64,000 bases of DNA from a virus (Duplodnaviria > Caudoviricetes). Within the stretch, counting starts at the first letter, position 1; every line of letters starts with the position of its first letter. Below are positions 2,468 through 17,543 of this stretch, one piece after another. The notes beneath the pieces were generated by a model. That model did not search any database. It had not been told where the DNA came from and saw only the letters and a list, made by a program, of their open reading frames with translations. The position numbers and the translations under genes were made by a program. Location: positions 64,001 to 128,000 of the IMG/VR virus record IMGVR_UViG_2974506496_000001; one strand, 5' to 3'.

Positions 2468-3073
2468 ATGCAACTTCATCAATACGTCGCCCTCTTACTC
2501 GGTGTGGGTTTAATCACGATCATTCTCGTTATGCTGGTCGGCTGGCTCGTGCTTGAGAACCAACGCAAATACGCTGCATTCCAACGGGTGCGTTACGAAA
2601 ATATGCTGCGCTATCGCCTGACCGATTTCAGCAACCAGGTGACAGCAGATCTCTCGGCCATGTTCCTGCGCTATTTACTCTCCCCGCGGGTTGGTGGTAC
2701 TGAGCGGGTGAGTGTAGAGGCAATAGCCGGTACCGTCCAGGGTATGCTGCAAGCGATCGCTGCTCACCACAACCATGAGTTTAAAAGCTCAGAGGTCGGT
2801 GATACGTTACTGGGTCTGTTGATTAAAGAGGTCTCTTATGAAACACAGAGCGACCGCATCATCTTTACCTTGACACGTCCAGGTGCCACGAACCTCACTT
2901 ATACCCTGACACACCCCGAAGCGTACGGTTCGATGCTCTGCTGTGAGCTGGAAGACTATCGCATGCGTCTGCGTGACCGCGCAACCCTGCAGATCAAGCG
3001 TGAGCTCGATCAGGCACCGCAAACGTATAAAGCCGCCTTCCCTAACTCGGAGCGGATTAATACCACTGCGTAA
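2468..3073 (+). CDS. Hypothetical protein with N-terminal membrane anchor
   Basis: Hydrophobic aa 7-29; GAGG RBS. Confidence 0.7.
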   Translation: MQLHQYVALLLGVGLITIILVMLVGWLVLENQRKYAAFQRVRYENMLRYRLTDFSNQVTADLSAMFLRYLLSPRVGGTERVSVEAIAGTVQGMLQAIAAHHNHEFKSSEVGDTLLGLLIKEVSYETQSDRIIFTLTRPGATNLTYTLTHPEAYGSMLCCELEDYRMRLRDRATLQIKRELDQAPQTYKAAFPNSERINTTA

Positions 3074-3172
3074 TAAATGGGAGGCTTTGCCTCCCTTTAT
3101 TTTTTGTCATTGTAGTAAATGTGTACAACTTAACTAAATCATTTAGTAAACGTAAAAAGGAAAGTCAACATC

Positions 3173-3469
3173 ATGTCAAACGAAGCCATTCTGAAAGCCC
3201 TGGAAACCATTGCCACTACATACCCAAAAGTTGAGGTGGTGTCGATTGGTGGGATTATCGCCTGCTTCGGCACGATGAAAGATGGAAAGGTAGAAACCAC
3301 GGTGTTTGGCAATCTGCCCGAGTTCACTGTCGCCAATGTGAAGAAGCTTTACAACGCGAAGTGGTCACAACGTCAATTGGGTTATATGTACGGTACATCA
3401 CAGGCCCAGATCGCTAACTTCATGAAGAACCGTGAGGTTAACGTTCCCAATACGGTAAAAGGTTATTAG
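3173..3469 (+). CDS. Small protein with C-terminal helix-turn-helix-like motif
   Basis: WSQRQLGYMYGTSQAQIANF. Confidence 0.6.
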   Translation: MSNEAILKALETIATTYPKVEVVSIGGIIACFGTMKDGKVETTVFGNLPEFTVANVKKLYNAKWSQRQLGYMYGTSQAQIANFMKNREVNVPNTVKGY

Positions 3470-5734: not shown

Positions 5735-6013
5735 ATGAGTAAAGGTACTTTGAAAGGCCTTGGTGTGGTGTTGGCGTGTCTTGTGATTGGCGTATTGCTG
5801 TTTGTTTTTGCAACCGCTGTTCAAGCTGCCGATACACCCGTTAACCCCCACTGTGTTGCCATTACTAACGACAGTACAATTACCACCCAGTGTGACGACG
5901 GTACCGTGGTCATTACCAACACCGCAACCTCGACGGTGATGGTGTGTCATGTAAGTAAAGAAACAAAAGGTCTTCCGCAATGCGTGAAAGACCGGGTTGT
6001 CATTTCTAATTAA
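5735..6013 (+). CDS. Exported small Cys-containing protein
   Basis: Signal-peptide-like N-terminus (AVQA), four Cys in mature part. Confidence 0.6.
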
Positions 6014-6036: not shown

Positions 6037-7170
6037 ATGCAGTACAGTACCTTTAATACCACTAAAAACGATCAGATGGCTGAACCGATGTTCCTGGGTC
6101 AGTCGGTTAACGTCTCACGTTATGATCAGCAGAAGTACCCCGCGTTCGAAAAGCTGATTGAGAAACAACTTTCATTCTTCTGGCGCCCTGAAGAGGTGGA
6201 TGTTTCGCAAGACCGTATCGACTTCCAGGGGTTACCGGATCATGAGAAACACATCTTCGTGTCTAACCTGAAATACCAAACCCTGCTGGACTCGATTCAG
6301 GGTCGTAGTCCGAACGTGGCCCTGCTGCCGATCTGTTCTATCCCGGAACTCGAAACCTGGATTGAAACCTGGGCGTTCTCTGAAACGATCCACTCGCGCT
6401 CATACACCCACATCATCCGTAATATCTTTACTGACCCCTCCATCGTGTTTGATGACATCGTGACCAACGAACACATCAAAGCGCGTGCTGAGTCCGTCAC
6501 GGAGTATTACGACCAGCTGATTGAAATGACCATGTACCTCAACTTACTGGGTGAAGGTACTCATGTAATCAATGGTAAGAAAGTCGTGGTGTCGATGCGT
6601 GCTATCAAGCGTCTGGTCTACCTGTGCATCGTGTCAGTCAACGTGCTGGAAGCCATCCGCTTCTATGTCTCCTTTGCCTGCTCGTTTGCCTTTGCTGAAC
6701 GCGAGCTGATGGAAGGCAACGCCAAGATCATTAAACTGATCGCCCGTGATGAAGCCCTGCATCTGACCGGCACCCAGCACATGATCATGTTAATGAAGTC
6801 CGGTGCTGACGATGCTGAGATGGCGGAAATCGTTAAAGAGTGTGAAGCAGAAACATACGCACTCTTTAAGGACGCTGCAGAGCAGGAGAAAGACTGGGCG
6901 AACTATCTGTTCCAGGATGGGTCGATGATCGGTCTGAACAAAGAGATCGTGTGTCAGTACATCGAATACATCACCAACATCCGTATTCGCGCCATCGGTT
7001 ACGATGACATCTACGCCGGTGTCAAAGCTAACCCTATCCCGTGGATCAACTCCTGGCTGGTTTCTGACAACGTGCAACAAGCCCCTCAAGAGTCAGAGAT
7101 TACCTCGTATTTAGTAGGTCAGATCGACTCAACTGTCGATGCAGATGCGTTTGATAACTTCGAACTTTAA
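6037..7170 (+). CDS. nrdB: Ribonucleotide reductase class Ia beta subunit
   Basis: [46 protein letters not shown]; closely E. coli-like. Confidence 0.97.
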
Positions 7171-7227
7171 TACGTGATCAGCTTCACTCACGTAGAGGGC
7201 TGATCGCTAGCCCTTTATGGAGAGTGT

Positions 7228-8061
7228 ATGTCTGAGATAAAAGATAACCCGGATAACTGGAAAGTGATTCCGGGTTACTCACGTTATGAGATCAACGAAG
7301 TCGGCGTTGTAAGAAAGATACATAACAAGAAGGTGATGAAACAATGGCTGCGTGGTAATTATACCGCCACTGCTATCACTTCTGATAATAAGTCAACTAG
7401 TAGAATAGAATCTATTCATATTTTACTGTGCCTTACATTTATTGGTCCAAAGCCCTTACCTGAACCTGGGCACAAACTTGTTACCGCTAACCACAAGGAC
7501 GGTAACAAACTTAACAATGTGAGGTCTAATGTAGAATGGTTATCCAATTCTGGTAATATTCTGCATGCTTACAAGAACCGGCTAAATAAATCATCACAGC
7601 ACCTGCGTCTAACCAATGTGGTCTCTGGTGAAGTTGTCGACCTGCATTCTTACCGCGAATTATCCAAATGGATGGGTAATCCTAACCTGCGCGGAAGAAT
7701 GGAGTATCTGAAGTATCGTAACAAGCTTTATCAAGGCCAGTGGCGAATAGAACTTCTTGGCGAATCAGAGAAGTCTTCAGGGTCTCGTACCAGTAAACAA
7801 GTATGCGTAATGGATGTGGCTAAACGACTTGGATTGAGGGGTGGTGAGTTTGATACTTTCATCTTTAATTCCATGCATGATGCTGCAGCGGCATTAGGCG
7901 TAAGTCGCAAAGGTATTGGTCGGTCGATTAGTACCAAAGGACGCCATGTTGTAAATGGGTACGCTATATCGCTATCATTTGACGATATGACTAATATCAC
8001 TTATGACAAAGCGTATGTGGAGATTAGTCTTAAATGGGCGAAACTCAGGGGTAAGAAGTAA
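7228..8061 (+). mobile_element. Free-standing HNH homing endonuclease (NUMOD4-HNH-NUMOD1-like)
   Basis: WKVIPGYSRYEINEVG (NUMOD4); NHKDGNKLNN..SNVEW...SGNILHA (HNH); FNSMHDAAAALGVS; visibly AT-richer than flanks. Confidence 0.9.
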
Positions 8062-8129
8062 GTTCTTATCTGGTCGGTCAGATCGACTCGAAAGTGGACG
8101 CCAACGATTTCGACGATTTCCAACTGTAA
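8055..8129 (+). pseudogene. nrdB: Orphan duplicate of the nrdB 3' end ([24 protein letters not shown])
   Basis: 24 codons plus TAA, colinear with 7096..7170; in-frame TAA at 8052 upstream and no start codon. Confidence 0.9.
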
Positions 8130-8136
8130 CTGCTAG

Positions 8137-8160
8137 GCACCCATGCTTCGGTGTGGGTGC
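8137..8160 (+). terminator. UUCG-tetraloop hairpin after the nrdB relic
   Basis: GCACCCATGC-TTCG-GTGTGGGTGC. Confidence 0.55.
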
Positions 8161-8177
8161 TGTATAAAGGAGGATGT

Positions 8178-8774
8178 ATGGATGTAGGGCAACGCAATGT
8201 CCAGATCTCAGATCAGTATGAGATTATCGGCATGGCGGGCGTAAACTACCTGCCTTTAAAGAAGTCTTCCTCCGATACATACCGCGTGGTGTTGTGTCGG
8301 TTGGATGGGTTAGGGCGTGACAACACTAACTTGCATTATGACATCGATGATGCCTTCACTGACCACTACCGCTTTATCACCCAGCAACTCCCCTTTGCCG
8401 AATTTGATGGCAGGGATCGTGTCACCACACTCATGCAGAACTGGCAAGGCAAAGCAACCACCGAGATCATTGACAACATCTTTAGTTCAATTGATCCCGA
8501 CGCAGGCGCCTTTACGCTAGAAAGCATCAGTGTGGAAAACGGTTACCTTTATGGCGAGGTCAGATTAGCCAATAGCATTGTGGGAACGAATCTCTCCATG
8601 ATGCTGAACCATCCACGTCCCGATCAGGCGGCCATGATCTTTGGTGTTCGCTACCTGTCGGTCAATACCCGGCTTGACGGACTGCAATATGCTGATGTCA
8701 AGAAGATCTGTGCGTATGACGTGAATATCGTCAGCGAAACTGAATTAACCCAACGTCGTAACGGCGTGAAATAA
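8178..8774 (+). CDS. Hypothetical protein
   Basis: AAGGAGG RBS before ATG 8178. Confidence 0.7.
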   Translation: MDVGQRNVQISDQYEIIGMAGVNYLPLKKSSSDTYRVVLCRLDGLGRDNTNLHYDIDDAFTDHYRFITQQLPFAEFDGRDRVTTLMQNWQGKATTEIIDNIFSSIDPDAGAFTLESISVENGYLYGEVRLANSIVGTNLSMMLNHPRPDQAAMIFGVRYLSVNTRLDGLQYADVKKICAYDVNIVSETELTQRRNGVK

Positions 8775-17399: not shown

Positions 17400-17543
17400 A
17401 TGAGCGCACCTGAAGAATTTGATATGGACGGCCTGGAATCACTGGATCTGGAAGGCGCTGAGAAAGCGGCAGAAGAGAAAGCAGCCGGCGGTGGCGAAGC
17501 CCTGTCTGATGGCGAAGCAGATTGCGAAGGTTGCAAGATCTAA
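17400..17543 (+). CDS. 47-aa acidic peptide ending in CxxC (NrdA C-terminal tail-like; not in ORF track)
   Basis: MSAPEEFDMDGLESLDLEGAEKAAEEKAAGGGEALSDGEADCEGCKI*; phage-typical codons; fills an otherwise empty gap. Confidence 0.75.
   Translation: MSAPEEFDMDGLESLDLEGAEKAAEEKAAGGGEALSDGEADCEGCKI

Follow-up and report, generated by a model that had tools for sequence, protein, structure and literature searches.

The stretch analysed here (the window) comprises 64,000 nucleotides (nt), positions 64,001 to 128,000 of the 271-kb virus record IMGVR_UViG_2974506496_000001 (271182 bases), which is closely related to a group of Erwinia jumbo phages (genus Agricanvirus). The window carries nrdB, a full-length gene for the small subunit of class Ia ribonucleotide reductase (6037..7170, 377 aa; Pfam Ribonuc_red_sm, E 1e-52), which could be aligned end to end with its homologues and whose 3′ end occurs twice, on either side of a homing endonuclease gene. 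The final 24 codons and the stop codon of nrdB (7096..7170), designated tail′, encode the Tyr of radical transfer (in SYLVGQID) as well as the end of the protein that binds NrdA. They are followed by a 57-nt spacer (7171..7227), by a free-standing HNH endonuclease gene of 277 aa (7228..8061) and by a start-less reading frame (8055..8129) that overlaps the endonuclease stop codon (8059-8061) and is preceded by an in-frame TAA at 8052-8054. This frame consists of four nrdB-like codons, E V S S (8055..8066), and of 63 nt without a start codon, designated the remnant (8067..8129). Farther downstream are a hairpin with a C(UUCG)G loop (CUUCGG; 8136..8161, centroid energy -18.4 kcal/mol) and, in an unchanged right flank, a gene homologous to gp92 of Erwinia phage MadMel (8178..8774; named after the MadMel annotation, 99% identity). 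All of these features lie on the plus strand, and the layout agreed in every coordinate with a preliminary description of this DNA, which had noted the nrdB end, the start-less copy overlapping the HNH stop and the UUCG hairpin.

The two 75-nt tail copies had 50 of 75 nt in common, with synonymous differences at 11 codons and non-synonymous ones at 7; a 14-mer, GGTCAGATCGACTC, occurred in both. Relatives of the locus were gathered by protein searches and look-up of the encoding contigs, and most of them are referred to below by locus numbers (L). When the 22-aa tail was used as query in an ungapped BLOSUM62 scan of the 2.6 kb downstream of nrdB, the window scored 82, against a median of 13 across 88 nrdB loci and scores of no more than 26 at all non-duplicated loci; therefore, the tail repeat is far beyond chance. 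The G+C content at third codon positions (GC3) was low in tail′ (42%) and the HNH gene (40%) and higher in the nrdB body (64%) and the downstream copy (58%), and CTG accounted for 19 of the 26 Leu codons of the nrdB body, which bore out the earlier statement that the upstream copy is composed like the HNH gene and the downstream copy like the nrdB body.

Residues 10-121 of the endonuclease were aligned by phmmer to I-HmuI (PDB 1U3E, E 4e-5), and a Foldseek search with the AlphaFold model of the protein (mean predicted local distance difference test score, pLDDT, 72) returned 1U3E as the sole significant match (E 2e-6, probability 1.0). Residues H89, N101 and N110, the catalytic His and the Asn residues of the HNH motif, were invariant in 7-8 family members, and the C-terminal half was predicted to be rich in helices, which may bind DNA. 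By these similarities the protein is placed among the I-HmuI-like HNH homing endonucleases; its gene is the only HNH_3-type gene of the genome. The spacer, which is conserved in L007, L009 and L014 and is regarded as element-borne, was predicted to fold into a strong hairpin (~7178-7235; minimum free energy -28.5 kcal/mol, z score -3.7), none of 200 shuffles folding equally well, and the outer stem of this hairpin pairs with part of the endonuclease Shine-Dalgarno sequence (GGAGAG, 7219-7224). A similar restraint on translation has been described for endonuclease genes of T4 (PMC2988022). A scan for sigma-70 promoters and terminators gave nothing above shuffled controls.

Comparison with the sister phages

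Four Agricanvirus phages, MadMel, Rebecca, Desertfox and Deimos-Minion, shared about 97% identity with the window over its first 14 kb and had no endonuclease gene downstream of nrdB. In these sister phages, nrdB ends in SKVDANDFDDFQL and a stop codon, with the same UUCG hairpin directly after it. The 63 nt of the remnant were identical to their working tails at 63/63 positions, compared with 44/63 for tail′. In AH06, a more distant phage that has no endonuclease gene at all, nrdB ends in DDFQL and a stop codon, again followed directly by the hairpin, whereas a tail ending in FEL was absent from every nrdB without a downstream endonuclease gene among the Agricanvirus-type phages compared. Since the downstream copy, and not the working tail of the window, has the sequence of the sister working tails, the comparison indicates that the downstream copy is the original gene end, now displaced, and that the upstream tail arrived with the endonuclease gene. 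A foreign origin of tail′ is evident from this same difference together with its GC3, which is like that of the endonuclease gene, and nrdB (6037..7170) is thus a working, chimeric gene. These results support the earlier proposal that the endonuclease gene had entered the essential gene and repaired it with a recoded 3′ end of its own.

It had also been expected that relatives lacking the HNH gene would end in an EVSSY...FQL tail plus the hairpin. The FQL tail and the hairpin were indeed found in MadMel, Deimos-Minion, Desertfox, Rebecca and AH06, but the EVSS codons were not, the relatives having E I T S at this place (gaa att aca tcc in MadMel). Since the E V S S codons of the window are nrdB-like and yet are not those of the sister phages, the donor appears to have carried a right arm already, with the crossover at ~8066; in the scheme proposed below, 8055..8066 would be the start of the right homology arm, brought in by the element.

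Recurrence of the layout in other phages

An endonuclease gene of this family adjoined nrdB in every context examined, downstream in 10 loci and, as a paralogue in the MadMel group, upstream. The full layout of tail′, spacer, endonuclease gene and remnant was found in L014, L007/L008, Klebsiella phage N1M2, L108 and L109. Identity to the endonuclease of the window was 98% for L014, 86% for L007/L008, 82% for L009 and 46% for N1M2 (tblastn), those of L108 and L109 were 72% and 64% identical to that of N1M2, and the endonucleases of the loci with the recurring layout ranged from 39 to 98% identity to that of the window. The junction lay no more than 2 codons from S-S-Y in all lineages with the layout (at least four), reading V-S-S-Y in the window, N1M2 and L108 and L-S-S-Y in L109. 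Tail′ was found together with the same spacer and the same endonuclease gene in L014, L007 and L009, and in these and the window the Leu codon of the conserved string was TTA in 4/4 tail′ alleles, compared with CTG in native tails and remnants.

A second pair of filled and empty alleles was provided by the metagenomic contig L109 and Serratia phage Yubaba, in which the right flank was 98.7% identical, the remnant matched at 63/63 positions and tail′ at 42/63. Two direct-orientation copies ~960 nt apart, as present in the window, might also have arisen if the nrdB 3′ end had been duplicated in tandem at this locus, the copies then diverging in place and the endonuclease gene landing between them later. 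We consider such a history scarcely credible. The divergence is one-sided (63/63 against 44/63), and there is no time for it between genomes with 98-99% identity elsewhere; the composition of tail′ is foreign, the same pattern arose independently in L109/Yubaba, and L009 suggests that the tail′ haplotype existed in a donor lineage without duplication.

In N1M2 (2498-3295), L108 (3001-3786) and L109 (3001-3699), the endonuclease ORF (open reading frame) reads on in frame to the stop codon of the old tail, which gives the predicted nuclease the NrdA-binding peptide, with its conserved Tyr, as C-terminus. It was also noticed that in L014 (3807-3902) and L007 (1672-1767), in the segments equivalent to window 8034-8129, the remnant lies inside an ATG-started ORF of 31 aa (MGETQGSEVSSY...FQL and a stop codon); this ORF has no obvious ribosome-binding site, and the frame is closed in the window by the TAA at 8052-8054.

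In L009, L010, L011 and L110, the endonuclease gene follows nrdB and no remnant is present. Since these relatives have tail′ as their sole tail, the incoming tail is sufficient for nrdB function; the tail′ variants differ mainly at synonymous sites and retain the conserved tail residues. These same facts bear on whether the locus could be a group I (or II) intron with an HNH ORF, spliced from ~7095 to ~8055 with the upstream tail as intron sequence. There is precedent for this in the nrdB introns with HNH ORFs of T4-type and Certrevirus phages (PMC2988022, PMC7344957), and nrdB is interrupted by another element in Serratia phage Sureiya, L109 and L110. However, tail′ is the only tail of these four loci and keeps its conserved residues, nrdB of the window is complete with its own stop codon, and a search of 6800-8400 against Rfam at E up to 10 matched no intron family and showed no intron signature, yielding two chance matches only; an intron is therefore most improbable here. 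The mid-gene interruptions of nrdB were located at 1-1921 in Sureiya (L096), 787-2881 in L109 and 1555-2948 in L110, and could be introns or split genes. In Sureiya and L109 the interrupter is a 660-bp HNH/winged-helix ORF; thus L109, which has the tail element in addition, contains two different endonuclease insertions in one nrdB.

No further tail duplication was detected among 80 IMG/VR nrdB loci. The best extra score, 26 in L086, lay inside an unrelated 175-aa ORF without nrdB similarity and was regarded as a chance match. The junction pattern had no match in IMG/VR, and in metagenomes it matched only ordinary bacterial-type nrdB genes. Contig joints 6986>8055 and 7073>8106, seen in four metagenome contig sets, were rejected as empty phage alleles, the contigs being bacterial nrdB contigs that fitted the remnant better than tail′. 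Contigs of bacteria with enterobacterial-type nrdB cross-map onto the remnant, and the string at the remnant junction (gaa gtN agt tct tat ctg gtc ggt cag atc gac, window 8055-8090) is almost letter-identical in enterobacterial-type nrdB genes from metagenomes (L100-L107).

Variants of the element also seem to have recombined with each other. Between L007 and the window, the locus was 97-100% identical except at window ~7000-7700, where identity fell to 52-88% in a patch centred on the tail of nrdB and on the endonuclease gene in its 5′ half; this patch has the appearance of a conversion tract formed between variants of the element.

Extent of the exchanged segment

Identity between MadMel and the window was 98-99% up to position 6013 and 98.8-99.3% again from 8064, giving breakpoints at 6013/6014 and 8063/8064. 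Between them, the nrdB body of the window had 73% nt identity to the MadMel nrdB and 83.5% to that of AH06. The preliminary description had limited the swap to the tail; the tail has been replaced, but with a body diverged to this degree the swap may be larger. In the MadMel group, an endonuclease paralogue of 43% identity is located directly upstream of nrdB (MadMel L005 6028-6864; also in Deimos-Minion, Desertfox and Rebecca), and it sits exactly where identity to the window falls (window 6013/6014). Two alternative endonuclease-linked nrdB haplotypes are thus present in genomes that are otherwise 97-99% identical.

One possibility is that the whole nrdB came in with the cassette. Alternatively, nrdB of the MadMel group may have been replaced via its own upstream endonuclease gene, the body in the window being native, and we favour this alternative because the break in GC3 falls at the tail and because the bodies of L109 and Sureiya are near-identical (96.7%). 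The direction of the body swap was also approached by sliding-window and fourfold-degenerate-site identity to AH06 and L009, which were too saturated or too noisy to give a direction.

The same breakpoints could result from an ordinary recombinational swap, in which a 2-kb block of whole nrdB plus an intergenic endonuclease gene was acquired from a diverged relative, with the left crossover upstream of nrdB and an illegitimate or microhomologous right junction inside the old tail. The remnant would then be a by-product and the endonuclease not causal. The low identity of the nrdB body between flanks of 98-99% identity fits such a block, as does the endonuclease gene being a plain intergenic gene in L009, L010 and L011. 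Against this, the S-S-Y codons hold the junction in each of at least four lineages, whose endonucleases are as diverged as described above, and the element-borne E V S S codons imply a donor in which the right arm already existed. Furthermore, the bodies of L109 and Sureiya/Yubaba are 92-97% identical, so only the tail region was replaced there; GC3 falls at tail′ and not at the nrdB start; and the MadMel group, with its own upstream endonuclease gene, may be the side on which nrdB was replaced. On balance, we regard the block swap as unlikely.

Proposed mechanism and known systems

The locus has an endonuclease gene directly 3′ of a full-length nrdB, a displaced native fragment and empty alleles in close relatives. 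It is quite probably, therefore, a gene-end-replacing homing element of the WHO/mORF type, named after systems of yeast nuclei and fungal mitochondria, a type that is a functional class and not a homology family. The unit would consist of a resistant nrdB 3′ end (tail′), the spacer hairpin, the I-HmuI-like HNH gene and a short right arm derived from nrdB. In mixed infections, empty nrdB alleles would be cut or nicked by the endonuclease, presumably in the conserved S-S-Y-L-V-G-Q codons, and the break would be repaired from the element-bearing genome, with the nrdB body as left arm and the remnant as right arm. The recipient would then have a full-length nrdB with the donor tail, followed by the endonuclease gene and by its own old tail with the terminator hairpin, and the element may still be mobile at present. 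As the stop codon comes with the element, neither RNA nor protein splicing would be required. This arrangement is in line with the model put forward for WHO elements, and the right arm of the donor, the recoded tails and the conversion-like patch of L007 agree with it as well.

Synonymous recoding would make the nrdB of the element resistant, with TTA in place of CTG at the Leu codon in the window and CTT GTG GGG/GGC in a second clade, and the remnant would be spared through the missing left half of the site. CTG GTN GGT, which is present in native tails and remnants, was absent from every element-linked working tail, the recoded strings being TTA GTA GGT in one clade and CTT GTG GGG or GGC in the other. 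Loss of this string may represent the change to immunity, and recoding would in that case destroy the target site, as had been proposed before. Several observations weigh against the scheme. The recoding signature is not exclusive to the element, L020 (an IMG/VR nrdB with no endonuclease gene nearby) having CTT GTG GGG. The remnant keeps TAT CTG GTC GGT CAG ATC GAC, and if the site lay wholly within this string the phage would cut itself. The endonuclease scored 17.4 for Pfam HNH_3 (cut-off 24.8) and 18.7 for NUMOD4 (cut-off 23.4); its relatives P0006, P0009 and P0010 carry precomputed PF13392 matches. Finally, the nrdB body differs from that of MadMel over its full length, which leaves room for a recombinational swap of a larger block.

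No NrdA was detected in the genome, both PF02867 and PF00317 being negative with positive controls run and the record being estimated as 98% complete. The phage NrdB is thus an orphan, and with no detectable nrdA in the phage it is NrdA of the host that the exchanged tail would need to fit. A 47-aa acidic ORF at 17400-17543 (plus strand), ending in ...DGEADCEGCKI and a stop codon, resembles the redox-active C-terminal tail of NrdA; no nrdA adjoins it. Because the S-S-Y-L-V-G-Q-I-D string is letter-identical in enterobacterial-type nrdB, and because the phage encodes NrdB and no NrdA, one might imagine that this string is the target and that the cassette also cuts nrdB of the host and of competitor phages, while the phage supplies a cut-resistant NrdB for host NrdA. 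As part of the same idea, the NrdA-binding end of the nuclease in N1M2, L108 and L109 could tether it to, or interfere with, the host ribonucleotide reductase. We consider this extended role improbable.

Introns and inteins are the textbook routes by which a homing endonuclease can reside inside an essential gene. Replacement of the gene end is another, third route, for which the documented cases so far come from mitochondria of fungi and from yeast nuclei. Several jumbo-phage genera show the same solution here, with an HNH nuclease that is unrelated and at the most conserved stretch of nrdB. It would also be a portable one, as a free-standing endonuclease gene can pass between phages that share just one conserved gene, and it would explain the local mosaic of nrdB alleles that are 73% identical in 98%-identical genomes. 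For annotation, small start-less gene ends beside HNH genes should be read as footprints and not as genes. Filled and empty alleles can be compared among cultured phages, the site being empty in the Erwinia amylovora MadMel group and in Serratia phage Yubaba, and such natural pairs make homing, immunity by recoding and the swapped NrdA-binding tail directly testable.

The WHO elements of Torulaspora/Lachancea yeasts (Coughlan et al. 2020, PMC7282813; Osborne et al. 2026, bioRxiv 10.64898/2026.08.13.744650) offer a close parallel. In the model for these elements, a sensitive allele is cut and repaired from the element-bearing copy, the downstream gene fragment serving as right recombination arm, and the outcome is a chimeric full-length gene plus a newly stranded fragment (PMC7282813). 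Common to both systems are an endonuclease gene combined with a resistant 3′ part of an essential gene, an old end pushed downstream as right arm, no splicing, and target-gene alleles strongly diverged between near-identical genomes. They differ in the nuclease, which in the WHO/HO protein family is an intein-derived LAGLIDADG protein with a zinc finger and in the window is an I-HmuI-type HNH protein; in the setting, a eukaryotic nucleus in meiosis as opposed to co-infecting phages; and in extent, about one third of FBA1 being replaced by WHO and only ~24 codons clearly replaced in the window. In addition, WHO elements are clustered, whereas the window has a single copy, with a paralogue upstream of nrdB in the sister phages.

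Similar gene hybrids are formed by mORFs of fungal mitochondria, in atp6 of Allomyces macrogynus, atp6, atp9, cox2 and nad3 of Glomus, atp9 of Rhizopus and cox2 of Mortierella (PMC3630166). There, too, a foreign C-terminus and an endonuclease ORF are inserted in frame and the native C-terminus is stranded downstream, the native copy being near-identical to that of sister species and the inserted copy divergent; some mORFs share a reading frame with the gene pieces beside them, a feature also seen in N1M2, L108 and L109. The mORFs, however, are organellar and encode GIY-YIG or LAGLIDADG nucleases, and several continue in frame from the inserted C-terminus, whereas the ORF of the window has its own start after the stop codon and hairpin.

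Among phages, the T-even free-standing HNH endonuclease MobE is encoded between nrdA and nrdB and targets nrdB (PMC2790892, PMC2988022). Such genes resemble the endonuclease gene of the window in being free-standing HNH genes beside nrdB and, in the scheme proposed here, in break repair with co-conversion of flanking markers and in hairpin-tuned expression; the T4-type genes, however, lie in intergenic DNA with homology in both neighbouring genes, and no duplicated gene end has been described for them, the word stem "duplicat" being absent from the T4 mobile-element review. I-HmuI of Bacillus phage SPO1 (1U3E), which matches the endonuclease of the window best in both sequence and fold, has an N-terminal NUMOD4-like region, the HNH motif and an extended modular DNA-binding part; its own gene lies within a group I intron that interrupts the DNA polymerase gene. 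I-HmuI is a nickase. The integrase-type elements e14 and phage 21, at icd of E. coli, integrate at the 3′ end of a gene and carry a replacement end. As in the window, the gene end is duplicated, with the incoming copy recoded and functional and the old copy stranded; the difference is that they use site-specific recombination by an integrase at attP/attB, and not break-induced homologous repair.

In the phage literature, of which our coverage was incomplete, no description was found of a duplicated gene end beside a homing endonuclease gene. The preliminary description had presented the layout as an alternative to intron or intein splicing; such an alternative is not a new one, having already been described for the fungal mORFs and the yeast WHO elements (PMC3630166, PMC7282813). 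What is new in the window, compared with those systems, is the nuclease family, the type of host and the target gene; the mechanism itself is a known one.

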